A program made the position numbers and the translations under genes. A stretch of 64,000 nt of DNA from positions 284,537 through 348,536 of the forward strand of contig JBIOWE010000006.1 in NCBI GenBank assembly GCA_044868145.1. The letters run 5' to 3'. This document shows positions 9,267-57,346 of this stretch, piece after piece (the first letter of the stretch is position 1; the number at the start of each line of letters is the position of its first letter). Under the pieces are notes generated by a model. The model was given only the letters and a program-made list of their open reading frames with translations. It did not search any database and was not told where the DNA came from. The stretch comes from Patescibacteria group bacterium (GTDB taxonomy: Bacteria > Patescibacteriota > Patescibacteriia > UBA10025 > JBIOWE01).

Positions 9267-10270
9267 AGATCCTTCACGCACCATTTAACATAGCTGGCCA
9301 GGCATCAATTATTTCCAGAGCTCAAAGGAAATTAGGAATTCAGAGCGACGTAATGGTTTTTAGTCAAACCTATCTTGAGTACGAAAACGACATTATTTTA
9401 AACATTAATACGAAGCCTTTAGCCTCAAAGTTTGGGGTCGTGTTAAAAAACTTTCTCTATTGCATAAGGACGTATGACATTTTCCATTTTCACTTCGGTT
9501 CAAGCCTTTTGCCGTTTCTCATAGATATGCATATTCTTAAATTGCTTGGGAAACCAATGCTCATGCACTATTGGGGGTCGGACGTTATACAAATTGACAT
9601 TGCAAAGAAGTACACACTGCTCAGCGAGGAAGAATTGAAAGAAATCTTCAAAAGTATTCATAGCAGAAGGCGTAGAAAAAAAATTCGTAGAATCGAAAGC
9701 CTGGCTAACATGACAATAGTTGGCGATTACTCTCTTCAGCGATATTCCCCAAAGAGTATTGTCATCCGCCAGGCAATTGATTTGTCTGCATTACAATTCG
9801 TAGGAGTCCCGACAAAAGAAAATAATATCAACGTTGTTCATGCTCCAACCAACCGTAAAATAAAAGGTACGCATCATGTTATAAGCGTAATAGATGATCT
9901 CAAGAGACAAGGTTATAATATGAATTTACAAATAGTGGAAAACATGCCCAATAAAGAAGCGTTAGAGATATATAAAAAGGCCGACATCGTGATTGATGAC
10001 GTGCTGCAAGGTCCTTACGGTATTTTTGCGATTGAAAGCATGGCTTTGGGAAAACCAGTGCTCGGTTATGTAAGAAACACCGAGCAATATCCAGGATTAC
10101 CAATAATGAACACCAGCCCGAGCTCACTCAAAAACAATATCTTATCTCTTTTTAACAACCGCCCATTACGTATAACCCTCGGCAAGCAAGGTAGAGCCTA
10201 CGTCGAACGTCATCATGATAGCTTAAAGATCGCCCAGCAACTAATAGATATCTACAAAACACTATCGTAA
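9263..10270 (+). CDS. glycosyltransferase (GT-B fold, GT1/GT4-like)
   Basis: C-terminal region (FAIESMALGKPVLGY) resembles the GT-B nucleotide-sugar-binding domain. Sits in the glycan cluster. 4-nt overlap upstream. Confidence 0.5.
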   Translation: MKILHAPFNIAGQASIISRAQRKLGIQSDVMVFSQTYLEYENDIILNINTKPLASKFGVVLKNFLYCIRTYDIFHFHFGSSLLPFLIDMHILKLLGKPMLMHYWGSDVIQIDIAKKYTLLSEEELKEIFKSIHSRRRRKKIRRIESLANMTIVGDYSLQRYSPKSIVIRQAIDLSALQFVGVPTKENNINVVHAPTNRKIKGTHHVISVIDDLKRQGYNMNLQIVENMPNKEALEIYKKADIVIDDVLQGPYGIFAIESMALGKPVLGYVRNTEQYPGLPIMNTSPSSLKNNILSLFNNRPLRITLGKQGRAYVERHHDSLKIAQQLIDIYKTLS

Positions 10271-11773: not shown

Positions 11774-12982
11774 TTATTGGTGGTAGACCTTGCAATTATA
11801 TTGAGCCTCCAAGTAAACTTCTTGATATCTCCGAGATATACTCTGAGGAGTTAGGTTTTTTTTACCAAATTCTACATTGTGAGAAATCAATTTATCACGT
11901 AATTTATTATCGCGTGCCAAATGAACCAACTGAGTACTATAATCTTGAATGTCCAAGGGCGTAAACCCAATACCGCACCCAAAATCCAAGAAATGACTTT
12001 GACTCGGATGACGAGAAATCAGCAACGGGACACCGCAGGCTATTGCCTGTGAAATACTAATAGTCGGAAATAACGCCCAAGTAGCAATATCCGAGGCGTT
12101 GAAAAGCGATGCGAGCTCTTGCTCTTTAACAAATCCTTTTTGAATAACATAGGGCCTAATTCCTAATTCATCAATAAGGTCATTCAACTGATTTGCATAA
12201 TTATATTCACCATCTCCAACGATCAAGAGACGTAAACGTTGCTCATGTTTTATTGAAAACGCAAACGCCTTCAGAAGAACATCGTGTCGTTTAAATGCAT
12301 GCAAACTCCCTGTTGTAATAATTAAGACATGATCATCAGAAATATCGAGCACATTTCTAGTTCTCTTCCTTATTTCTTCGTTACGGGAAAAAAATTCTGT
12401 ATCTGCTCCAAGCGGAATTAGATGCACTCGTCCCCTATCAATTTTGTATTCTTTTTTTAAAAAATCGATACCACCTTTTGTGACGGAAACAATTGAATCT
12501 GCCCAGAAATATGCTCGATTAACGATACGTTTTCTAACAAATTCATATTCTAACTCTACTAATTTTCTATTGTCAAACGAGCGTGTATATTGATGTTGAT
12601 CAATGACAATTGGCGCTTTATGACGGACTATGTTTGCTACCTGCACTGGTAACCCGTGGGATGGTTCATGGAGGTGCCAAATGTCAGCACGAAGATTTTT
12701 TACTATGCTCGCTACGCCCCGACAAAAGTACAAATCTGAGTAATGAAATAATGTTGGTAAAGTAATGATCTTGTTTGCGACACTGTTTTTTTCACTATTG
12801 CGGGTGCCCTCCGCATTCGGGATTTCATTCCTTTTCAAAACTTCTTTCCAGCTTTTGTGGCCAGCCTTTGTTGTAACAAAAATCACGTCGTGTCCTAACT
12901 TTAGCTGGGCCTTCGCTAATAAAGCTTCTTTTTGGCTTACGCCCGATGATACAAGTGTTTTAGTTACATGTACGATTCTCAT
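11774..12982 (-). CDS. glycosyltransferase family 4 (GT-B)
   Basis: MRIVHVT start. C-terminal GT1/GT4 signature region (FPT...ISQAIACGVPLL). Confidence 0.7.
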   Translation of the reverse strand: MRIVHVTKTLVSSGVSQKEALLAKAQLKLGHDVIFVTTKAGHKSWKEVLKRNEIPNAEGTRNSEKNSVANKIITLPTLFHYSDLYFCRGVASIVKNLRADIWHLHEPSHGLPVQVANIVRHKAPIVIDQHQYTRSFDNRKLVELEYEFVRKRIVNRAYFWADSIVSVTKGGIDFLKKEYKIDRGRVHLIPLGADTEFFSRNEEIRKRTRNVLDISDDHVLIITTGSLHAFKRHDVLLKAFAFSIKHEQRLRLLIVGDGEYNYANQLNDLIDELGIRPYVIQKGFVKEQELASLFNASDIATWALFPTISISQAIACGVPLLISRHPSQSHFLDFGCGIGFTPLDIQDYSTQLVHLARDNKLRDKLISHNVEFGKKNLTPQSISRRYQEVYLEAQYNCKVYHQ

Positions 12983-12989
12983 TTGTCGC

Positions 12990-13973
12990 TTATTTTGACA
13001 CTACAATTTCAATGGTATCACCAACATGAAGAAAATTCATGAAATACCTAAATGGTAATAACAAAAAATTAATAATGATATTAAATAACATAAGCTGATC
13101 GTTATAAAGTTTCTTGTTGATTGAAAGTTGACGCTTTTTCCTAAGGGACGCATCGGTAAGGACATTTAAAAAAGATCCTAAAAAACGAAAAGGGTCGGAG
13201 TTATAGTTTAGTTTTGTCACGATGAGCCCCGTTTTATACGCATATAATTTAAGTGTCTTAGGCGAATAATGATATAAATGACGAGGTATTTCCAAATTAA
13301 CCCAAAACTGTTTGAATAATTTAAAAGGCAGTGAACTTACATTTGGAACCGTAACGATTATTGATCCACCGGGCTTTAAAATACGTTTTAGTTCTTGTAA
13401 AAGCAATGTAGGACTCGGGACATGTTCGAAAACATGGTTTAAGGTTATTACATCAAAATAATCTTCTGGAAACTTTGCTGAAAATAAATCTCCTGGAAAG
13501 ATGTTCAAACCATTTTTTTTGGCAAATTCTTTATCAAAACTCCCAGGCTCGACGCCATAAACGTTCATTCTGAGGGAGCGCGCCCTTAATAAAAACTCCC
13601 CCGAGCCGCTTCCCACATCTAAGAAATTTCCTTTGGGCACAACCAAGACTGTTCGTAATAATGGTCGTATCGGCGCAAATAATACACGAAAAAAGAAGTT
13701 TTTCCGATGACTAAAATATAATTTATATATATAATTATTAATCTTCCCTAAAAATGATTTTTTCGTTGGTTGAGTCAGGGAATAGTAAGCTTGTTTAGGA
13801 TAAGCAATATCTAATTCACTTAATTCTATTTGCGGATTTTGCATAATTAAAGAGCACTGCGAACATTGAACAATATCAAAAGATTGTGCATTGTCAAATA
13901 TACGGTCATGGCCAGAAAATAAAAAAATTAAATCGTGGCTTCCACAAAGATCACATTCTGAAATTTGTTTCAT
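12990..13973 (-). CDS. class I SAM-dependent methyltransferase with an N-terminal Cys4 zinc-ribbon
   Basis: CDLCGS...CSQCS pattern. Motif I LDVGSGSGEF. Methyltransferase fold motifs. Confidence 0.7.
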   Translation of the reverse strand: MKQISECDLCGSHDLIFLFSGHDRIFDNAQSFDIVQCSQCSLIMQNPQIELSELDIAYPKQAYYSLTQPTKKSFLGKINNYIYKLYFSHRKNFFFRVLFAPIRPLLRTVLVVPKGNFLDVGSGSGEFLLRARSLRMNVYGVEPGSFDKEFAKKNGLNIFPGDLFSAKFPEDYFDVITLNHVFEHVPSPTLLLQELKRILKPGGSIIVTVPNVSSLPFKLFKQFWVNLEIPRHLYHYSPKTLKLYAYKTGLIVTKLNYNSDPFRFLGSFLNVLTDASLRKKRQLSINKKLYNDQLMLFNIIINFLLLPFRYFMNFLHVGDTIEIVVSK

Positions 13974-14315: not shown

Positions 14316-15813
14316 AGACTATAGTTCCCTCGTTTTCGTAAACTTTTTCGAAGTATGGATTGATAAAGGCAAAATTTGAAAATCCCTCATACCCGAGTAC
14401 CTTGAAATTTTGTTCCTCAAAAATAGCTCCCCAAAAAACGTATCGAATATCGTACTTCTTAGACAAACGCGACCGCACGCCGGGGTCTTTATTTGTGAAG
14501 ATACCGACTTTTTCTCCTTCCGGAAACTCGATAAGATTTTCAGTTACAATCGGTAAGAAGTAGCCAAATTGCTGCGCGCCGGTGAAGACGGTACCAGGAG
14601 GTATGTTTTCTCGAATCCACTTATATGCTGCGATATCGCTTTCCGGAATCTGTGTTGGGTGAAGACCGGGGCAACTGCGCACATAACATTTCTTATAATC
14701 TTGCTGTTGAGCCAGTACGAAGGGAAGCAACAGAATAACTAAGAATGCAATGGCCACAAACCGTACCCTACTTTTTCTAATCTGATCCATCAAAAAACAC
14801 ACGCCATACCCGACGATGAACATTATTGGTGCGACGAGAAAAGGCGCAAACCTGTTCGGAAAAAAGGGAGACCCGATCAGGTTTGACTGAGTGAGAAAAT
14901 ATGTTGCAAGAAACCAAAGGCCTAGAACGGTATTTTTTTTAAGAAGAACAAAATAAACGCCTACAAGAAAAAACAAGATGAGCAACGGGTTTCCGAGTGT
15001 AGTATTGAACATATCGGAGAAAGAAAATCCATAATTATCGATGGAAAAACGAGGAAGTATATTCAAACTGCTCGGGGTGAACAAAAAGTAGAAAAGCGTC
15101 AGACCGAGGAATACGCTTGATAACACTATGACTTTTTTACGCATATTTCTTTTTCGAATGTAAAAAAGAAATATATATGTAAGCGTTATCAATAGGGCAA
15201 GGAAAAAGGTCAATACGTGAACAAAAAAAATGATGGCGAGAACCGAATACGCGTACATTAGGTTTGTCCTTCTTTCGGTCTCCTGATGTTTTACGAGAAA
15301 ATAGAGTAACAGAGGCAGGAAAAACATCCCTAAAAGTTCCGCAACGTGACCAAGCCAATACATGCTACCGAAATAGAACGAAAAGAAAAGTAGAACAGTT
15401 ATTAGAACGCTACCGATAAAATTCTTGTAAACATAATAGCTTAATAGAAAGTAGCTTAAGACAGCTAATGCTAATAGGCTCACGAAAAATATTTTACCGA
15501 ATTCGAGACTACCAATGAGGGATGGATCTATGAGATACAAGACGGCAAGCACAATATGGACAGGAAATTCGGTCGAAATAAATGAACCATAGAGGGTTCG
15601 TGTTGACGATGGATTGTATGGTAACTGTGCATCCAACGCGCCATGGGTTGCTATGAGTTTTGACTTCATCAGTGTAATTGCTGTATCACAACACGGGGCG
15701 TACGCATGGTCGCCGCTATAATAAAGAAAAACTAAGGCACTTAAACCGACAACACAGCTTGCCAGAATAACGACTCGCATGAATTTATATCGTGAAGCAG
15801 GTAAAGGTGTCAT
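14302..15813 (-). CDS. large polytopic membrane protein with a C-terminal extracytoplasmic domain. Candidate GT-C-type glycosyltransferase or glycan polymerase
   Basis: About 11 TM helices followed by a ~150-aa soluble C-terminus. Embedded among GT and methyltransferase genes. Confidence 0.5.
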   Translation of the reverse strand: MTPLPASRYKFMRVVILASCVVGLSALVFLYYSGDHAYAPCCDTAITLMKSKLIATHGALDAQLPYNPSSTRTLYGSFISTEFPVHIVLAVLYLIDPSLIGSLEFGKIFFVSLLALAVLSYFLLSYYVYKNFIGSVLITVLLFFSFYFGSMYWLGHVAELLGMFFLPLLLYFLVKHQETERRTNLMYAYSVLAIIFFVHVLTFFLALLITLTYIFLFYIRKRNMRKKVIVLSSVFLGLTLFYFLFTPSSLNILPRFSIDNYGFSFSDMFNTTLGNPLLILFFLVGVYFVLLKKNTVLGLWFLATYFLTQSNLIGSPFFPNRFAPFLVAPIMFIVGYGVCFLMDQIRKSRVRFVAIAFLVILLLPFVLAQQQDYKKCYVRSCPGLHPTQIPESDIAAYKWIRENIPPGTVFTGAQQFGYFLPIVTENLIEFPEGEKVGIFTNKDPGVRSRLSKKYDIRYVFWGAIFEEQNFKVLGYEGFSNFAFINPYFEKVYENEGTIVYEVQ

Positions 15814-27985: not shown

Positions 27986-30121
27986 TTAACGGGCAACTAC
28001 TCCGACAAACACGCCGCCACGAAACGCCAAAGTGTAGGCGAAGAATTGTCCAAGGACCTTGCCGGTTAGGTTAAAAAGACGAACTTGTGGTCCGCCACCA
28101 TACCCCGCACCCGCAACAATATCGTCTGTACCATCATTATTCACATCCCCAGCGGCAACATGAACGCCACCGCGAAAGGTTGATGCATACGCGAAGAATT
28201 GCCCAAGGACCGTTCCCGACTTCGTGAATATGCGGACGTGCGGGCCTCCGTTGGAAAAAGGACCTGTGACGATTTCATCCACCCCGTCACCGTTCACATC
28301 ACCGGAAGCCACGGAGACGCCACCCCGAAAGGTCGCGGCGTAGGCAAGAAATGGCACATACTTCCGCGTGCCAAACCGGTCAAAAATGCGTACCTCGGGA
28401 ACTGTGCCAACGCCTGCGCCAGCGATAATTTCATCTACCCCATCACCATTAACATCGCCGGCAGCGACGAAAACGCCGCCACGCTGCGCCTGATCAAAGG
28501 CAAAGAATCCCGGGGTGAACTTCGGCTTGCCATAACGGTCAAACACGCGCACCTGGGGTCCGCCGCCGTTGCCCGGACCGGTGATTATTTCATCCATCCC
28601 GTCGCCATCAAGATCTCCGACTGCAACATGCACACCGTTGCGAAATGTCGAGGCGTAAGCGAAAAACCCCGGCGTGAAGACTGCCGATCCGTTGGTTCGG
28701 AACACACGTACCTGAGGGCCGCCGCCAGGCCCTACGCCGGTAATAAGTTCCGAGGTACCGTCGCCGTTTACGTCGCCAGACGCTACTTCAACGCCTCCCG
28801 GAAACGTGGTTGCGTACGCGAAAAATTCAGATGCTACATTTCCTGATGCGTTGAGGAGGCGAACGTGGGGGCTGCCACCCGGGCCTGCACCCGTTACAAT
28901 GAGGTCGGACAGCACAATCGCTTGCTCGCTGTTAATGCTTTTTGCCAGGTTCACGCGTCCAGCGCCCAACTGACCCGCGTACGATGGATTACCCGCATCC
29001 AAATCATCTGACCCCTGAAACAGAACATCAGACACTTCAGAAAAAAATAGAAGGGGGTTTTTCGCCATGATGAGTGACAGGGCGCCGGCAATAACAGGGC
29101 TTGCGACCGACGTTCCGTACCATCCAGACTGATAGTAATCCGTAAACCCCTGGCCAGGAGAATAAAAAACCGTGCTGGTCATGTTAATGCCAGGGGCTGA
29201 AATATCGATACAGGGTCCATAGTTAGAAAAGCTTGTTTTGTGATCCAGCTCATCCGTGGCCGCAACACCGATAACATTGTCATTACACACCGGATATTGG
29301 GGTGTCGTGGCAAGGTTCACATTGTTATTACCGGCGGCGGCAACGACCAGGGCACCATGCTGCGCGGCATTGGTGATCGCCTCTTGAAGTACCTGACTAT
29401 TCGTTGATCCCACGAGGCTGAGATTGATAATATCAGCGCCCTTTGCAACAGCGTAGTTCACTCCTTCAGCAATAGTCAGAGTATCCCCCAGCCCGCTCCC
29501 GTCAAGCACGCGAACGGACATAACCCTACTGGTCCATACAACACCGCTTATGCCTGCCGCATTATTGCCTACTGCCGCCGCTATGCCAGCGACGACAGTG
29601 CCGTGACTCATGCCCGTGTCAGTCCACGCACCATCAAATTTCGGATTTGGATCAGCACTCCCTTGCACAAAATCCCAGCCATGAACGTCATCAATAAACC
29701 CATTCAGGTCATCATCAATACCGTTGCCAGGTATTTCTCCTGTGTTCATCCAAATATTCCCGGCCAGGTCCGGATGGTCAAGATCAACGCCGGAGTCAAG
29801 AACCGCGATAACGACGTCTTGTGATCCCGTTGTAACGTCCCAGGCAGTTGGCGCTTGAAGGGGTGAAAAATACCATTGGCTTGCATACAGCGAATCATCA
29901 GGCACTGTGGCCATCGAAAAACTCGCCAACGGTTCACGGATGGTGGCTCCATCATGTTCCATGATAATGGTATTGCCGTCCATACGGTAACTCACCCGAT
30001 CAAGATGATGAGGGCGACGGGAGACGTTATAACCAACGCTTGCCTCAACTGGATAAAACAAAAAGCACAGTACAAAGCACAGCGCAGTTAACGATCGTAT
30101 GGATGAGCAGCGCGCTGCCAC
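27986..30121 (-). CDS. secreted subtilisin-like serine protease (peptidase S8) fused to a C-terminal FG-GAP repeat beta-propeller
   Basis: N-terminal signal peptide. S8 triad motifs VLDSGVD (Asp), HGTVVAGI (His), GTSVASPVIAG (Ser). The C-terminal ~310 aa hold six ~44-aa repeats (GDVNGDGxDEIxxGxGxGGGPQVRxF...FFAY), with a possible degenerate seventh. GTG start 1 nt after the upstream stop. Confidence 0.85.
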   Translation of the reverse strand: MAARCSSIRSLTALCFVLCFLFYPVEASVGYNVSRRPHHLDRVSYRMDGNTIIMEHDGATIREPLASFSMATVPDDSLYASQWYFSPLQAPTAWDVTTGSQDVVIAVLDSGVDLDHPDLAGNIWMNTGEIPGNGIDDDLNGFIDDVHGWDFVQGSADPNPKFDGAWTDTGMSHGTVVAGIAAAVGNNAAGISGVVWTSRVMSVRVLDGSGLGDTLTIAEGVNYAVAKGADIINLSLVGSTNSQVLQEAITNAAQHGALVVAAAGNNNVNLATTPQYPVCNDNVIGVAATDELDHKTSFSNYGPCIDISAPGINMTSTVFYSPGQGFTDYYQSGWYGTSVASPVIAGALSLIMAKNPLLFFSEVSDVLFQGSDDLDAGNPSYAGQLGAGRVNLAKSINSEQAIVLSDLIVTGAGPGGSPHVRLLNASGNVASEFFAYATTFPGGVEVASGDVNGDGTSELITGVGPGGGPQVRVFRTNGSAVFTPGFFAYASTFRNGVHVAVGDLDGDGMDEIITGPGNGGGPQVRVFDRYGKPKFTPGFFAFDQAQRGGVFVAAGDVNGDGVDEIIAGAGVGTVPEVRIFDRFGTRKYVPFLAYAATFRGGVSVASGDVNGDGVDEIVTGPFSNGGPHVRIFTKSGTVLGQFFAYASTFRGGVHVAAGDVNNDGTDDIVAGAGYGGGPQVRLFNLTGKVLGQFFAYTLAFRGGVFVGVVAR
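27990..28920 (-). repeat. about six tandem ~132-nt degenerate coding repeats (FG-GAP blades) inside the subtilase gene
   Basis: Periodic protein repeat. The plus-strand antisense ORF 28199..28846 is an artifact of this repeat. Confidence 0.6.
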
Positions 30122-38635: not shown

Positions 38636-38833
38636 CTATTTTCCAAGATTGCTAAGAGCTATCGAAGCTAGAAAGAATGTGCAAGGAGCAATTAGCCAAT
38701 TAATTGACTCGGGCAGATTGGTTTGCCCCGTGAAGCCCCTGATTGCAGTGACCGATAGACAGCCGATCAGCAATATTATCCCAATAAACCAGAATCCCTT
38801 TGCTAAATCCTTCATCTCATCCTCCTTTGTCAA
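38636..38833 (-). CDS. hypothetical small two-TM membrane protein (59-65 aa)
   Basis: Two hydrophobic helices. A possible alternative start at the internal Met is preceded by AAGGAGG. Confidence 0.3.
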   Translation of the reverse strand: MTKEDEMKDLAKGFWFIGIILLIGCLSVTAIRGFTGQTNLPESINWLIAPCTFFLASIALSNLGK

Positions 38834-39544: not shown

Positions 39545-39621
39545 TTGGGTAACCGCCAATCCTCAGATTGGCGGACCACGGTTTCCCACATTACGCCCGA
39601 TCTGAGGATCGGGTGTTACCC
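39545..39621. repeat. dual-hairpin structured element, copy A (outer stem GGGTAAC/GTTACCC; hairpin 1 CCGCCAAT-CCTCAG-ATTGGCGG; hairpin 2 CCCGATC-TGAG-GATCGGG)
   Basis: Read directly. A second copy at 51721..51787 has an identical hairpin 1, and compensatory substitutions in the outer stem and hairpin 2. Confidence 0.6.
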
Positions 39622-39630
39622 GCGAAAAAA

Positions 39631-41877
39631 CTACTGCCTTTCAATCAGTGCGGTGTATATTTGATCAGACGTGAGGTCAGCGGAAAACTTGAGCTGATTT
39701 TGAGAAGACTCCCCGCTTTGGCTCCACGCGAGCACGTATTGAGAGGGCAGTCGAAGGAACGAAACCAAGCCTGTCGGCGCAGAACCAGGCTGGCGTTGCA
39801 CGAGAAGAGAATAGGTATCAGTCGGGTGCGTCAAAAAACCCGTTCGTAAGCTAAACGGAAGTTTATAGGAAACTTCGACTGTTGCCTGCTGACCAGGACG
39901 CACAACAACCCAGTTGCCGAACACCGTTTTGCCAAATTCATGTGTTACGCGGGTTTGCGTTCGTTCATCGAGTGAAGGATTTTTCTCAATTGCCAAGAGA
40001 TCTTCGTCTTGCCCCGCATCAAGGTCAGGTTCTTTAAACCTGGATTGCGGAATGACGCTAAATCCTTGAGCGTCAATAAGCTCGCTGCCTTCGGGAACGT
40101 AGAATCGAACGTAGGAGACGTTATCAACGCCCGCAAAAGCATCATTCTTCGAACCGTTATGCACGCGTGTCAATTTAACTGTATCGATAATGGAGCCATC
40201 GTCAAGAACGCGAGCTTCATGGAGAATCAATTGTTGCATTGACGCGTCCGTTTTGCCGCCGCCAATGTTCGTCGTCACCACGGAAAGAAAATCTTTTTCA
40301 GCGGGCAGAATCGCCCCGGACCAACGAAGGTCCTCGATGCGCTGCTGCGTTTCTTGATTTTTGCTGAACAGCAGGAGGTCGCGCTGATCAAAGGAGGTGC
40401 TCAAAGCTCCTAACAAATCAACCAACTTATCAGGACTAACGGAGAAGAGCTTATTTAAAAGCACAGGCAGAAGATCAGCGATGAACGCTTTTGGCTCGCC
40501 ACTCTCTCGATGAGCGTCCGAATAGGATTGTGCGTACGCAACAAAATTTGATGCACTGATGACAGTGCCGTATGGGTCGCGCATATCAATGGACCCGGTT
40601 ACGTCAAGGAGGCGCTCAATAAATGTTGGTGTAAGCGCGATAACACCGTCAACGGACGGTCCGCCGCTTTTTTCGTAAAACCACATTACTTTTTTCGCGC
40701 TCGTAGGAAAATCCGGGAACCAATTCGCGTCTTGGATGTTCCAATACGGATTCACGAGGTGGAGCGGATTCGGGGACACAATCTTTTCAGGAAATTGGCC
40801 GGCGATGTCATAACTTCCGCCGCGTGGCACCTCAATCCTCTCTACTGCGCCCTGGTAAACGTCAATGAGCGCGAGGGAGCCGATAAACCCGCCCGTAGGC
40901 CGAAGCTCACGATTATTTTCAAAAAGCACCAAGTAACGTTGCTGCGTATGTGCGCCAAGCACCGAAAGAAGGGCCTGGGAAGCCTTTTCCAAATAACTGA
41001 AATTGTCCCGAAGGGCTGGCAGTACGCCGGCAAGCGTCTGGAACGTTTCGCGACTAGACTCCGGAATATCTTCAGGGCGAACCAGTGAAAGGTTATCGAT
41101 CGTCACGCGCACGTAATGTTCCAGCAGAGGCAAACGTTCGGTCAAAACCGAAAAGTCCCGTGTTACGGTTTCGTCGGAACCCGGGACGCGCGTATCAATG
41201 GCTTGCAACAAGCTCGCCAATTCCTCCCCTGCTTTACTCATATACTCTCCGGCGGTCAACAAATGCTCTGCGCTACGCGATTCGCTGGAAGCCGCCTTTA
41301 CGATATCAGTTGTGAGCCCGCCGAAGCTGCGGAATTCTTCTTGGGCTGCGACGAAGCCGTTCTTCGCCTGCTCAAAGGTTGATGAGGCTTTATCGTACTG
41401 CTGGGAGGCAATATACTGGGAGGCATCAATGAATTGACCGTATGCATCCGTGCTGGCGCCGAGTACCTTACCTTTCACTTCTTTGGCTTTTTGAATTGCC
41501 GAAACGACAAAAAACGGCACAAGCAATGCGCATAAGAGCAAAACAAACACCAGAAGATGTTTGAACCGGGGCGTAGACAACTTCCATGAAATGTCAGAAT
41601 GATTTTCTTTTCGTTTTTGACCTCCGCGCGGCCGCCGGTGCACAGGCGCGTCTTCTGCCGGCACGGTAAGGTGATGAATGGCTTTCCCCACTGTTTGCGT
41701 GCCCGCGCTAAAAAAGTTTTCCAACGCTGACTGGCGCACTGTCTGCTTCGGCTGCGAAGATTTGTCAGTCATTTTGCGAAGATTCAAAACATTTTCCTCG
41801 GGGACGCCAATCCCGGCGCGCGGCTTTTGAATACGCACGCTCCGTGAACCGTTTGTTTTGTGATTAGTCCGATTCAT
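39631..41877 (-). CDS. DUF4012-domain extracytoplasmic protein, membrane-anchored (cell-envelope polysaccharide locus protein)
   Basis: N-terminal basic region plus one TM helix. Core motif QRYLVLFENNRELRPTGGFIGSLALIDV, characteristic of DUF4012. 748 aa. Confidence 0.6.
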   Translation of the reverse strand: MNRTNHKTNGSRSVRIQKPRAGIGVPEENVLNLRKMTDKSSQPKQTVRQSALENFFSAGTQTVGKAIHHLTVPAEDAPVHRRPRGGQKRKENHSDISWKLSTPRFKHLLVFVLLLCALLVPFFVVSAIQKAKEVKGKVLGASTDAYGQFIDASQYIASQQYDKASSTFEQAKNGFVAAQEEFRSFGGLTTDIVKAASSESRSAEHLLTAGEYMSKAGEELASLLQAIDTRVPGSDETVTRDFSVLTERLPLLEHYVRVTIDNLSLVRPEDIPESSRETFQTLAGVLPALRDNFSYLEKASQALLSVLGAHTQQRYLVLFENNRELRPTGGFIGSLALIDVYQGAVERIEVPRGGSYDIAGQFPEKIVSPNPLHLVNPYWNIQDANWFPDFPTSAKKVMWFYEKSGGPSVDGVIALTPTFIERLLDVTGSIDMRDPYGTVISASNFVAYAQSYSDAHRESGEPKAFIADLLPVLLNKLFSVSPDKLVDLLGALSTSFDQRDLLLFSKNQETQQRIEDLRWSGAILPAEKDFLSVVTTNIGGGKTDASMQQLILHEARVLDDGSIIDTVKLTRVHNGSKNDAFAGVDNVSYVRFYVPEGSELIDAQGFSVIPQSRFKEPDLDAGQDEDLLAIEKNPSLDERTQTRVTHEFGKTVFGNWVVVRPGQQATVEVSYKLPFSLRTGFLTHPTDTYSLLVQRQPGSAPTGLVSFLRLPSQYVLAWSQSGESSQNQLKFSADLTSDQIYTALIERQ

Positions 41878-47344: not shown

Positions 47345-47753
47345 TGCCAAGGTAAGCCTGTAAGCCGAATTCTGTTCTCCTACTTGCAAGCAAGCGGAAG
47401 AGATAATTATCTCTCTGGGACCGCCATTGCTGGCGGCCTCTAGCGCCCGTTCGGGCTTGCACCGGAGAGGGTTTTCCACGCTCCTATCTCGCGATAGGTG
47501 CGCGTGAGCTCTTACCTCACGATTTCGCCATTGCCTGATCCCACCTCGTCGGCGGGCCATTGGCTGTGTATTTTCTGTTGCACTTTCCCTGGGCTTCAAT
47601 GCTTTACAGTTCTCGAGAGATCCGCAAAGCACCTACTCCCGGTCGCCGTTAGCGACTCTCCACTTCTCGCCTCGTCGGCGAGGGTGTTCGGACTTTCCTC
47701 CCCACCTTCCCCTTGCGGAAAAAGGCGAAGCAATTATCCAACTTACCTTGGCA
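47345..47753 (-). ncRNA. rnpB: RNase P RNA, bacterial type A
   Basis: The minus-strand sequence contains GGGGAGGAAAGUCCGAACACC (P4 5-prime strand), AGUGCAACAGAAAA, GGGAUCAGGCAAUGGCGAAAUCGUGAGGUAAGAGCUCACGCGCACC and ACAGAAUUCGGCUUA (P4 3-prime strand). P1 forms by pairing of CCAAGGUAAG with CUUACCUUGG. About 408 nt. Confidence 0.85.
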
Positions 47754-49940: not shown

Positions 49941-49971
49941 AGCTGAGACGAAATATTCTCAGCTTTTTTTA
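49941..49971 (+). terminator. intrinsic terminator
   Basis: AGCTGAGA..TCTCAGCT stem followed by TTTTTTT. It abuts the recJ stop on the opposite strand. Confidence 0.65.
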
Positions 49972-51711
49972 TTCGTTTGATGCGTGCTTTAAGTCCTTCA
50001 CTTTGAGCTGCAGCTGTCGTTCGCTATTCCATTCGTTGACGGAAACTTCAAACACAATATCCACTTTGTCGCCGACGTTGAGCTTGTCGCCCCAGGAGTT
50101 CGCAAAACCGAAAGCGATAAGCTTATGCGGTTGCCCCGTCCCTTGCTCCACAAGTAATCGCAGATGCTTCCCATCGTTTCCAACGCGGTCTATGCTCGTT
50201 ACCGTCAAGCCCTCGGTTAAGAGGGTTGGTCGAGGATTTTTTTCACCAAATGGCTCAAGCTTTTCCAGCGTTTCCCAGATGTCCCAATGGATATCGGCGA
50301 GTTTGACCTGCGCGTCAATCATCATGCGAGGAACAAGGTCCTCCTTACCGAGCTGTTTATGCGCGTATTGTTCAAGACTCTCCTGAAAAACTGAAAGATT
50401 GCTTTTTGCCATGCTAAACCCGCATGCCTGGCTATGGCCTCCATATTTTTCAAAAAGCTTTTCGTGATGTACGAGCGCTTGCGTGATGTCGAACGCCGGA
50501 ATGCTGCGTCCTGACGCGACGATTGTTTTGTCTTTCAACGTCATAGCAAACGCGGGTCGATAATAATGGTTTGCCAGCTTGCCTGCAATCAATCCGAGTA
50601 ATCCGGCAGGCCAGTCTTTTTGAAACGCTGTAACCATTCGGATATCCGGGGGGAGCTCGCCGATTTGTTTTTTTGCCTGCTCAACGACCTTCTCCGTCAT
50701 TGTCTGGCGTTCCTGGTTCTTCTTATTGAGCTCCTGGCTGATTTGTTCAGCTGCCAATTCATCCTGAGTTTCTAAGAGCTCAAATGCCGTGTTCGCGTGG
50801 TCCATCCGGCCAGCAGCGTTCAAGCGCGGTGCAATCTGGAATCCGATGGAATAGGTGTCGATTCGCTCTGGCCGTATCCCGGCAAGGTCAATGAGTTTTT
50901 GCAAGCCCACTCTGCGGGTTTTCCGCAGGACAACAAGGCCATACTTCACGAGGGTGCGGTTTTCGCCGACGAGTCGCATCATGTCTGCAACAGTACTGAT
51001 AGCGACCAAGTCGAGCAGCCATTTTTCATATCCATCAAGTAAACGCTTCCCTTTGTCCTCCACGCATAACGCTTGCACAAGTTTATACGCCACACCGCCT
51101 GCTGCGAGATATTTAAACGGATATGTCTCACGCTTGAACTGCGGATTTAAAATCGCGTAAGCGGCAGGTTTCGTCGTTGGCTCTTCGTGATGGTCCGTTA
51201 CAATTACATCCATTCCCTTCTCATTCGCTAGCGCGATTTCAGGGGCGTTGCTTGTGCCACAGTCACAGGTGATAATCAATTTGGTTCCGCCTTTGGCGAT
51301 TGTCGTGACGGAATTCATATTCAGCCCGTACCCCTCGCGTTCGCGATGCGGCAAATACACCTCAACGGAATTGGCGCCAAGCTTTTTTAACGTTTCAACG
51401 AGCATCACTGATGCGCACACGCCGTCCGCGTCGTAATCCCCGTGCACCGTGATCTTCTCTTTTTTTTGAACGGCTTCGAAGATTCTCTTGACCGCTTTTT
51501 TCATGTCCACGAATAAAAAAGGGTCATGGATATCCTGACCGTAATCCGGATTCAAAAACTCGTCAATGGCTTTTTGATCGCGTATGTTGCGATTGAACAG
51601 CAACTGGAGAATAATCGGATCTATTTCTGGGAATTGCGCTTGAAATGCCGCTGGAACTTTCTTTGCAACAAGCCATTTACGAGTCATAGTTGGATGTATT
51701 GTATCATACAT
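49969..51711 (-). CDS. recJ: single-stranded-DNA-specific exonuclease RecJ
   Basis: DHH family motifs (VHGDYDADGVCAS, IVTDHHE), DHHA1 region and a C-terminal OB-fold. The start is set at the internal MYDTIHPT, because the longest ORF start overlaps the structured element at 51721. Confidence 0.85.
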   Translation of the reverse strand: MYDTIHPTMTRKWLVAKKVPAAFQAQFPEIDPIILQLLFNRNIRDQKAIDEFLNPDYGQDIHDPFLFVDMKKAVKRIFEAVQKKEKITVHGDYDADGVCASVMLVETLKKLGANSVEVYLPHREREGYGLNMNSVTTIAKGGTKLIITCDCGTSNAPEIALANEKGMDVIVTDHHEEPTTKPAAYAILNPQFKRETYPFKYLAAGGVAYKLVQALCVEDKGKRLLDGYEKWLLDLVAISTVADMMRLVGENRTLVKYGLVVLRKTRRVGLQKLIDLAGIRPERIDTYSIGFQIAPRLNAAGRMDHANTAFELLETQDELAAEQISQELNKKNQERQTMTEKVVEQAKKQIGELPPDIRMVTAFQKDWPAGLLGLIAGKLANHYYRPAFAMTLKDKTIVASGRSIPAFDITQALVHHEKLFEKYGGHSQACGFSMAKSNLSVFQESLEQYAHKQLGKEDLVPRMMIDAQVKLADIHWDIWETLEKLEPFGEKNPRPTLLTEGLTVTSIDRVGNDGKHLRLLVEQGTGQPHKLIAFGFANSWGDKLNVGDKVDIVFEVSVNEWNSERQLQLKVKDLKHASNE

Positions 51712-51720
51712 CTCACCACA

Positions 51721-51787
51721 TTGGGTAGGCGCCAATCCTCAGATTGGCGGCCCACATCGGCCGGATCTGAGGATCCGGCCTACCCAA
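51721..51787. repeat. dual-hairpin structured element, copy B (outer stem TTGGGTAGG/CCTACCCAA; hairpin 1 CGCCAAT-CCTCAG-ATTGGCG; hairpin 2 GCCGGATC-TGAG-GATCCGGC)
   Basis: Read directly. It is a paralog of copy A at 39545..39621. Confidence 0.6.
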
Positions 51788-51832: not shown

Positions 51833-51925
51833 TGGGTAGTCTCGGGTCCCCCGCCCGCTTCGCGTTGCGAAGCAAGGCGGGCGGGCTTGACCCGAGGCGA
51901 GGTCAAGGGACCTCGCCTACCCGCT
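51833..51925. repeat. GC-rich nested palindromic element (GGGTAG..CTACCC outer; CTCGGGTC..GACCCGAG; CCCGCCCGC..GCGGGCGGG; GGCGAGGT..ACCTCGCC)
   Basis: Read directly. GC content is far above the local average. It shares the CCCGCCCG/CGGGCGGG stem with the element at 57296..57346. Confidence 0.5.
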
Positions 51926-51928
51926 GGA

Positions 51929-51957
51929 TTGACAGCAAGCGATGCACCATGTACTGT
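51929..51957 (+). promoter_or_regulatory. putative sigma70-type promoter of the 51987 gene
   Basis: TTGACA-17 nt-TACTGT, upstream of the RBS AAGGAGGTG. Confidence 0.35.
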
Positions 51958-51986: not shown

Positions 51987-52265
51987 ATGAGACCTGTTCG
52001 CTTTGACCTTTTAATTCACGTAGAGCGGAAGGAGGAGCTTCAAAAAGTAGTTGAATTTCCGGCATTCGGCTATACAGTATCCATTGTAAGAGGAAATGAC
52101 GAGGCTTTCCTGGATCAAGAAAAAAGAACCATTCAAATTGGCATTACGGAAAAAACGGTAAATGAGCTGCCAGGTGTTTTAAAAGTACAATTTCATAATC
52201 TATCTGATGGTTCTCTAAAATCGGGGGTTTACGTGCCAAGGGGTGGTAATGAATCAGGAACGTAA
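51987..52265 (+). CDS. hypothetical small protein (92 aa), possibly with a P-II/GlnB-like ferredoxin fold
   Basis: Strong RBS, and a terminator immediately downstream. The alternating hydrophobic pattern is weakly reminiscent of the P-II fold, but this is not secure. Confidence 0.45.
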   Translation: MRPVRFDLLIHVERKEELQKVVEFPAFGYTVSIVRGNDEAFLDQEKRTIQIGITEKTVNELPGVLKVQFHNLSDGSLKSGVYVPRGGNESGT

Positions 52266-52271
52266 TACCAT

Positions 52272-52305
52272 AAACGCTGGCACACCCTACCAGCGTTTTT
52301 TTATT
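52272..52305 (+). terminator. intrinsic terminator
   Basis: AACGCTGG..CCAGCGTT stem followed by TTTTTTTTATTT. Confidence 0.7.
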
Positions 52306-52411
52306 TATGCCCATTAACCGAGCGCAGGCCGCTGTGCCTGCGATCGGTTCACTTCAATTGATTGCACGTCGCACCCACAGCGGGGTGCTCTGGGCTTTTC
52401 GTACACTTACC

Positions 52412-57265: not shown

Positions 57266-57295
57266 ATTATATAGTAAATTTCTAATTTCTAAACC

Positions 57296-57346
57296 CCCGC
57301 CCGACTCGCTGCAGACGCAGCTCTTGTCAAAGCGGGCGGGCTAATT
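57296..57346. repeat. GC-rich palindromic element CCCGCCCG-N29-CGGGCGGGC in the gpmI-acs intergenic region
   Basis: Read directly. It shares the stem sequence with the element at 51849..51884. Confidence 0.5.

Follow-up and report, generated by a model that had tools for sequence, protein, structure and literature searches.

GTAG-type repetitive extragenic palindromic sequences (REPs) have stems of 6-13 bp and short loops and often occur as head-to-head dimers with the GTAG termini on the outside; the two halves of such a dimer either form a hairpin each or pair into one large stem-loop, and heterodimers occur frequently (PMC3733652). Tagged REPs have been reported from eight phyla, and Patescibacteria are not among them (PMC3733652). 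Equivalent terms are BIMEs (bacterial interspersed mosaic elements) in E. coli and REPINs (REP doublets forming hairpins) in Pseudomonas (Bertels and Rainey 2011, PMC3116915). Group 3 REPs consist of GTAG, a perfect 8-bp stem and a 3-nt loop, and the HUH enzyme that acts on them, a REP-associated tyrosine transposase (RAYT, also TnpA-REP), binds the folded single-stranded unit and requires the tag for cleavage at a nearby CT (PMC8266576). The present analysis concerns a stretch of 64,000 nt from a Patescibacteria group bacterium (assembly GCA_044868145.1, contig JBIOWE010000006.1, positions 284,537 to 348,536 of the forward strand), here called the window and numbered from its first letter. 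Two 'dual-hairpin' elements, A and B, had been predicted in it from the letters alone, one next to a gene of the DUF4012 family and the other next to recJ. They are real, and they look REP-, BIME- or REPIN-like rather than like a new structured RNA. Elements A and B are probably two copies of a lineage-specific REP family, each a head-to-head heterodimer in the REPIN/BIME arrangement.

Genomes of Patescibacteria (Candidate Phyla Radiation, CPR) are small and tightly packed, so persistent repeat families are unexpected there. If confirmed in complete genomes, the elements would extend the host range of GTAG-tagged palindromic repeats to Patescibacteria and would raise the question whether CPR bacteria maintain them by a RAYT-like enzyme or otherwise. 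Some of the assembly breaks and 'unannotated structured' intergenic stretches in metagenomic CPR genomes would also be explained.

Architecture of the elements

Both copies are present at the loci where they had been noticed, A at 39547-39621 and B at 51721-51787, and neither is assigned a strand. The core that they were said to share is identical in both and measures 21 nt instead of 22 (CGCCAATCCTCAGATTGGCGG, at 39554-39574 and 51730-51750). It occurs nowhere else in the 64-kb window, even with up to three mismatches (0 expected from 100 shuffles), and a repeat finder delimits a longer common block of 39 nt at 90% identity. As a whole, A is an inverted repeat with 25-nt arms that are 84% complementary. 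The outer stem is GGGTAAC/GTTACCC in A and TTGGGTAGG/CCTACCCAA in B. Hairpin 1 is present as predicted, with a stem of 8 bp and the loop CTCA in place of the loop CCTCAG originally given, while hairpin 2 reads CCCGATC/GATCGGG in A and GCCGGATC/GATCCGGC in B. Three base pairs have changed between A and B in a fully compensatory way and none disruptively, which bears out the claim of paired differences in the outer stem and hairpin 2 with pairing kept. The two hairpin cores are indeed reverse complements of each other (ATCCTCAGAT and ATCTGAGGAT). Hairpin 2 also has the two GATC sites described for it; as GATC is found 229 times in the window versus 245-259 expected, it is not unusual, and these sites therefore carry no special weight.

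The genomic context was described correctly in outline, one copy following the DUF4012 gene and the other preceding recJ, and only the distances need adjustment. The DUF4012 gene lies on the minus strand at 39631-41877 with its stop codon at 39631-39633, and A begins 9 nt (not 10) past this stop on the sense side. B ends 33 nt upstream of the ATG of recJ (49969-51687, minus strand, ATG at 51687) and is located between the divergent recJ (minus) and open reading frame ORF92 (plus).

Each element resolves into two stem-loop units placed head to head. In A, two GTAA-tagged units are separated by a 21-nt spacer and closed by GGGTAAC/GTTACCC. The left unit (39549-39574, plus strand) has the tag (GG)GTAA, the stem CCGCCAATC/GATTGGCGG and the loop CTCA, and the right unit (39596-39619, minus strand) has the tag (GG)GTAA plus CA, the stem CCCGATC/GATCGGG and again the loop CTCA. 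In B, two GTAG-tagged units surround a 10-nt spacer within the closure TTGGGTAGG/CCTACCCAA; the left unit (51725-51749, plus strand) combines the tag (GG)GTAG plus G with the stem CGCCAATC/GATTGGCG, the right unit (51760-51783, minus strand) combines (GG)GTAG with GCCGGATC/GATCCGGC, and both have the loop CTCA. The units are paired in inverted orientation with their tags outside, and therefore the tags form the 'outer stem' and the hairpin cores are mutually reverse complementary. The paired units are heterodimers, as their stems are related and not identical (CGCCAATC versus CCGGATC or CCCGATC).

A search for GGGTA...TACCC closures led to a third element, C (51834-51922, without assigned strand), which lies 46 nt to the right of B, is closed by GGGTAG/CTACCC and had been overlooked when two copies only were counted. 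Its fold is Y-shaped, with an energy of -67 kcal/mol. The right arm of C (51897-51920, minus strand) is a GTAG-tagged unit with the stem GCGAGGTC/GACCTCGC and the loop CCTT, and its left arm contains a nested GC-rich hairpin, CCCCCGCCCGC...GCGGGCGGG. The Logan assembly SRR30692719 breaks inside C, where contigs of 60,948 and 71,194 nt overlap by 22 nt in the apical hairpin (51857-51878); palindromes like C break de Bruijn graph assemblies.

In MAFFT alignments, both of the short units and of A with B, the hairpins fell out of register. Instead of a covariance model, a scan for an explicit tag-plus-stem pattern was therefore used, with shuffled sequence as control. The scan called for a GTA[AG] tag and a perfect stem of at least 7 bp with at least 5 GC pairs, and was repeated on 30 composition-matched shuffles of the window. 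Five strong units were found, at 39549(+), 39596(-), 51725(+), 51760(-) and 51897(-), all five preceded by GG, compared with 0-1 units (mean about 0.2) in each shuffled window. When one mismatch was permitted, two weak intragenic matches were added, which corresponds to the chance level. Based on the strong units, the anatomy is GGGTA(G/A), 0-2 nt, a perfect GC-rich stem of 7-9 bp and a 4-nt loop, CTCA or CCTT, with a total length of 24-26 nt, inside the 20-40 bp typical of tagged REPs. All five are extragenic and confined to two intergenic sites, where their orientation alternates and the tags face outwards. The sequence surveyed for copies comprised the window and 9 kb added on its right, from a source contig of 397 kb, and those 9 kb contained no further copies. 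If the window is typical, the density would amount to about one unit per 10-13 kb. REPs in E. coli have about this density.

Alternative folds

The fold energies of A and B are -41 to -51 kcal/mol on either strand (z -5.4 to -6.4), and none of 200 shuffles folded as well. Together with the compensatory changes, these values agree with the original prediction in that the elements are not random palindromes and vary in a structure-preserving manner. When the 64 kb were folded in sliding windows, C, B, 52308-52396 and A proved the most stable stretches other than the RNase P RNA. Due to the inverted layout of two units, the halves can fold singly, as the 'dual hairpin', or pair together as one long hairpin, and both forms are available as had been proposed. 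The form that was taken for the alternative, however, the one long hairpin made by pairing of hairpin 1 with hairpin 2, is the minimum-energy fold of the RNA on both strands. With RNA parameters, it is favoured over the dual-hairpin Y shape by 2-9 kcal/mol. With DNA parameters, the two forms of A differ by about 2 kcal/mol at most, and for B they are identical, the dual-hairpin form being the minimum-energy fold itself.

Distribution in related genomes

Homologues of RecJ and DUF4012 carry the labels Patescibacteria or Kerfeldbacteria, and the nearest RecJ sequences are 59-60% identical. The A/B core is absent from species-representative genomes, Joint Genome Institute (JGI) metagenomes and IMG/VR, which fits a lineage-specific repeat. 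A gapped pattern over both hairpin cores returned 29 matches in the species-representative genomes, all of them unrelated perfect hairpins and none with the core. Only chance matches were obtained from the JGI metagenomes (20-mer core) and IMG/VR (18-mer), and two motifs of C gave either chance matches in high-GC phages or no matches in IMG/VR.

Upstream of recJ in the relative L039 (RecJ 59% identical) lies element D, GGGTAAA-ACCCGAGC-CCTC-GCTCGGGT ... TCGGAGC-GAGG-GCTCCGA-CCTACCC, a head-to-head pair with an inner sequence unrelated to that of A and B. A third tagged unit adjoins the pair in opposite orientation, so that L039 has units at 9857(-), 9899(+) and 9937(-), and a dispersed singleton with the same GAGCCCTCGC core is found 2.5 kb off at 12444. 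The flanks of A (CACTTT on the left, GCGAAAAAA on the right) are similar to those of D: A and the reverse complement of D have CACTTT|GGGTA... and ...TACCC|(G/A)CGAAA(A/G)AAA in common. This would mean either that the conserved unit extends past the palindrome by a few bases or that there is a target preference.

The recJ-upstream site varies among relatives. Within the genus of L039, whose members have RecJ proteins 87-90% identical to each other, it holds the tagged dimer and the singleton unit in L039 and nothing in L047. Also within this genus, one tagged hairpin plus nested GC-rich hairpins are found at the site in L043 and a 20-nt hairpin only in L046. The site is empty in L042, which is more distant and syntenic. 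Directly past the DUF4012 stop, L049 has a head-to-head pair, GTAA-GTGGAGAT-CCCT-ATCTCCAC ... GGCGGAAAT-GGGG-ATTTCCGCC-TAC, and L050 has an empty site after DUF4012. The GTAG tag is carried by both units of B, the right unit of C, L039 9857 and 9937, L043 5675 and L049 4970, and the GTAA tag by both units of A, L039 9899 and L049 4929.

Element C also has a counterpart, L043:5536-5700, which is 72% identical to it. The exact common blocks are TTGGGTAG, GGTCCCCCGCCC, AAGGCGGGCGGGCTTGACC, GGTCAAGGGACC and CTACCC, and four base pairs in two stems are changed on both sides, as read off the alignment by eye. The apical loop of the L043 counterpart contains an 84-nt AT-rich insert.

Comparison with described REP systems

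The elements resemble the GTAG REP dimers described by Di Nocera, De Gregorio and Rocco (2013, PMC3733652) in most of their anatomy. Shared features are a terminal GTAG-type tag beside a short GC-rich stem-loop, stems of 7-9 bp with very short loops, inverted units with the tags outside and a spacer of 10-21 nt, two alternative folds, heterodimer partners and clustered, alternating units. Both are extragenic and lack target-site duplications, and hairpin-preserving co-variation between the arms is expected given this dimer anatomy. A similar comparison can be made to the Group 3 REPtrons of S. maltophilia and Marinomonas (Corneloup et al. 2021, PMC8266576), which likewise combine GTAG, 0-2 nt, a perfect stem of 5-8 bp and a loop of 3-4 nt. 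Their enzyme recognises REPs as folded single-stranded DNA, and hundreds of REPs are present per genome, unlike the few copies seen here. The assignment to a REP family is further supported by the presence/absence polymorphism at the recJ-upstream site and by a layout that recurs with a different interior in relatives, and the break of an independent assembly inside C is in line with it.

On this reading, the basic unit is a stem-loop of about 25 nt, made of a GGGTA(G/A) tag, 0-2 spacer bases, a perfect GC-rich stem of 7-9 bp and a C/T-rich tetraloop, and one element consists of two slightly different inverted units and a short spacer. By analogy with these systems, each unit would form its own hairpin in single-stranded DNA. 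A structure-specific enzyme, classically a RAYT / TnpA-REP HUH tyrosine transposase, would read the hairpin together with GTAG and would copy or maintain the elements without target-site duplication. Elements without a hairpin would cease to propagate and, for this reason, the survivors would be those differing by paired changes; the compensatory differences would reflect that each hairpin and the arm-to-arm pairing must be kept. Perhaps the elements also act on the host. A could provide a stable 3' hairpin on the DUF4012 transcript, and B and C could insulate or tune the divergent promoters whose predicted -35 boxes adjoin them. The fixed promoter-adjacent placement makes a host function of this kind (insulation, promoter tuning) testable.

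Several observations weigh against a REP family. High copy number, with tens to hundreds of dispersed copies per genome, is the REP hallmark, and the roughly 73 kb surveyed contained only two A/B copies and five tagged units. The evidence points near the reading that was originally named as a refutation, a simple repetitive palindrome or mobile-element repeat, without the high copy number in this stretch. A cognate RAYT gene (HUH Y1 transposase, Pfam Y1_Tnp) in the same genome, often flanked by REPs, is likewise a defining feature. Neither a RAYT nor a Y1 or any other transposase turned up in the genes scanned, in the Pfam annotation of the contigs or, by Pfam, in the small ORFs beside the elements of relatives; the scans covered the genes at positions 1-26773 and selected genes between 37456 and 53281, and the existing annotation of the Logan contigs covered 29631-73089. 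The tag is longer than in GTAG REPs (GGGTAR), and both units of A carry GTAA, which is outside the degenerate tags listed for that group (PMC3733652), and in S. maltophilia the enzyme no longer cleaves when the fourth base of the tag is altered (PMC8266576). Most copies lie near promoters, with B, C and D between divergent genes, whereas published REPs mostly follow genes and separate ORFs that are convergent or co-directional. Across genera, C has sequence blocks in common, conserved between genomes whose RecJ is only 59% identical, and three genomes have the TACCC end 35-38 nt ahead of the ATG of recJ. These conserved blocks and the fixed recJ spacing suggest a constraint at the level of the host and not only selfish spread. 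Finally, a literature search found no report of REPs or REPINs from Patescibacteria.

Alternative explanations

A different view, which appears rather unlikely, would regard the elements as more than selfish REPs, namely as a Patescibacteria-wide system of modular, nestable GC-rich hairpins with GGGTAR/YTACCC ends, either exapted as promoter or insulator elements or spread by a non-RAYT enzyme in genomes that are otherwise considered almost repeat-free. Behind it stand the same positions across genera (before recJ and after DUF4012), the common blocks and the similar hairpins that interrupt the gene for RNase P RNA in a relative. In cyanobacteria, very small mobile hairpin repeats, the subject of work by Elhai and co-workers in 2008 and by Vioque in 1997, are reported to insert into other repeats and into structural RNA helices. 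They resemble the nesting seen here, both of the CCCCGCCCG module inside C and of hairpin in hairpin in L043 compared with L046 and L047, as well as the hairpin inserts in the RNase P RNA gene of L042; the sequences and the host phylum are different.

The elements could also be host DNA elements at promoters, in which the GGGTA...TACCC palindrome would serve as a cruciform-forming or protein-bound insulator, or as an upstream element that provides or adjoins the -35 region, and would respond to supercoiling between divergent promoters. The distance from the TACCC end to the recJ ATG (35 nt in the window, 38 nt in both L039 and L043) coincides with the -35 position of predicted TGn-extended -10 boxes, which are TGATACAAT in the window (51698-51706), TGCTAAAAT and TGGTAAAAT; the left end of B thus overlaps the -35 position of the predicted recJ promoter. 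C ends 5 nt ahead of the predicted -35 box of ORF92 (TTGACA, 51928-51933), its counterpart L043:5536-5700 is separated by 3 nt from a TTGACA on the opposite strand, and the space between the two divergent predicted promoters is filled by B and C. These promoters, however, are consensus predictions only. In addition, A is not adjacent to a promoter, the nearest predicted -35 box being 77 nt downstream of it, and in L046 and L047, which belong to the same genus, recJ is driven from a different, element-free promoter region. Arms that are spaced by 53 to 79 nt and enclose differing interiors are also unlike the binding site of a dimeric regulator. A promoter role of this kind seems unlikely. The suggestion of a protein-recognised DNA structure may well be right.

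The other half of that suggestion, a functional RNA, is not supported in the form of a dedicated dual-hairpin RNA, and a structured RNA in general is improbable. Such an RNA, cis-acting or small and functional in its Y or long-hairpin fold, might be a stabiliser or terminator in the 3' untranslated region after DUF4012 or a regulator of recJ or ORF92. The very stable folds (z about -5 to -6), the compensatory changes between copies and across genera, the position of A 9 nt past the stop codon on the sense strand and the same-layout elements after DUF4012 (L049) and upstream of recJ (L039, L043) would all be consistent with it. In contrast, the comparison to Rfam that the original prediction had called for yielded no family: at gathering score, only RNase P RNA was found in the whole window and nothing besides RNase P in the relatives, and even at E up to 10, A, B and C had no match other than unrelated families (E 0.006-10) far under their gathering scores. 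The predicted recJ transcript is nearly leaderless and would start downstream of B, so that B is predicted to be outside of it and, placed between two divergent predicted promoters, may escape transcription altogether. Inner sequences are unrelated between genera, only the termini being kept, and close relatives lack the element entirely. The mismatches in the arms of A show no strand bias and no strand-specific G-U signal. No U-tract follows either hairpin on either strand.

An intrinsic terminator was rejected accordingly, as the scan placed none on either strand of A or B and the sequence that follows is GCGAAAAAA or AAAGTGCC for A and AAGGGATG or AATGTGGT for B. Three further identities were considered and discarded. 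The 7-bp closing stem invites a tRNA-like reading, and ARAGORN found no tRNA or tmRNA. CUGAGGA resembles the CUGANGA core of a hammerhead ribozyme; it is located inside a stem-loop, has no GAAA junction and is absent from D. For an integron attC site (RYYYAAC ... GTTRRRY), the Y/R positions of A do not fit and B (GGGTAGG...CCTACCC) is without AAC/GTT, and no integrase was present in the annotated neighbourhood.

A DDE-type miniature inverted-repeat transposable element is very unlikely, as inverted-repeat termini conserved across elements with different interiors, presence/absence polymorphism among relatives and the 9-nt direct repeats flanking another GC-rich hairpin module (57293-57343) would be in line with it, but the elements, just 63-89 nt long, comprise nothing beyond a pair of short stem-loops, the sequences examined contain no transposase gene whose ends match, and target-site duplications are lacking at A (CACTTT / GCGAAA), B (CACA / GGGATG), C (TTATTAT / GCTGGA) and D (TTTCGT / AAAGTG).

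Neighbouring hairpin modules and other features

A related GC-rich two-hairpin element, also without assigned strand, lies at 52308-52396, 16 nt past the stop of the PFOR beta gene. Its closure is GCCCA/TGGGC in place of a GTAG tag. The first of its two hairpins, AACCGAGCGCAGGCCGCTGTGCCTGCGATCGGTT, is found again upstream of recJ in both L046 and L043. The L046 sequence (2878-2911) is AACCAAGCGCAGGCCTCTGAGCCTGCGATTGGAG, nearly the same as the hairpin in the window. In L043 (6880-6950), a hairpin of the AACCGAGCGCAGGCCGCTGTGCCTGCGATCGGTT type has a second hairpin inserted in its loop, and in L047 the same site reads CCAAG|ATTGG with no insert. This series looks as if hairpin modules had been inserted into one another, or deleted, step by step.

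A stand-alone hairpin module without assigned strand, CCCCCGCCCG...CGGGCGGG, is found at 57293-57343, and the same module is nested in C. The hairpin (ACCCCCGCCCG...GCGGGCGGGCT) is GC-rich within an AT-rich spacer, and the 9-nt direct repeat AATTTCTAA on both of its sides resembles a target-site duplication. In addition to its nested position in C, the module (CCCGCCCG...CGGGCGGG) occurs twice in L043 and also in L050 (about 13220-13260).

Between the B/C cluster and the element at 52308-52396 lies ORF92 (51987-52265, plus strand, 92 amino acids), which is preceded by a predicted promoter and a strong ribosome-binding site (AAAGGAGG), is followed by a clean terminator (52274-52300) and gave no Pfam match. 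Syntenic relatives have other genes at this position. With palindromic elements on both sides, ORF92 may be a small cassette that was inserted here.

The RNase P RNA gene of L042 (14707-15321) is 615 nt long, compared with 405 nt in the window (47345-47749) and 367 positions in the model. Two long hairpins that resemble each other are part of it, CCCAGCACCACTTTTG...CAAAAGTGGTGCTGGG at 14949-15000 and CTCCAGCACCGCTTTTG...CAAAAGCGGTACTGGAG near 15240, and a palindromic repeat appears to have been inserted twice in this gene. A separate palindrome family, CCCCACACCAAT...ATTGGTGTGGGG, is represented by three copies within 530 nt in L050 (3960-4488) and by one copy in L039 (7551-7657). The L050 copies are intergenic and located upstream of a Bac_transf gene, at the position taken by the RNase P RNA in L042.

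Downstream of DUF4012, in the regions 39484-39246 of the window (minus strand), L049:5140-5365 and L050:12384-12615, three distant genomes have a conserved promoter-like block in common, which consists of TGTGGATAT, 5-6 nt, TTGACA, 17 nt and TATNNT. The block is followed by a unit of 176-190 nt with a GAGGAGAGAG-like motif and, at its end, an intrinsic terminator with the conserved loop UCUCUUC..AAGG, and in all three genomes this unit is situated inside a gene-free gap of about 1.1-1.25 kb. It had no Rfam match, and a consensus fold of the three sequences recovered the terminator only. The unit may be an undescribed small RNA.

Further to the left, the minus strand at 38636-38814 encodes an ORF of about 59 amino acids, with a strong ribosome-binding site (AAGGAGG), an ATG at 38814 and a hydrophobic peptide, MKDLAKGFWFIGIILLIGCLSV..., which is missing from the Logan contig gene table. 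In the most GC-rich kilobase of the window (57% GC), six tandem copies of a unit of about 153-159 nt (51-53 codons), 64-73% identical to the reference copy, extend over 28003-28826. They are part of an ORF of 711 amino acids (27986-30121, minus strand), which points to a repeat-domain protein.

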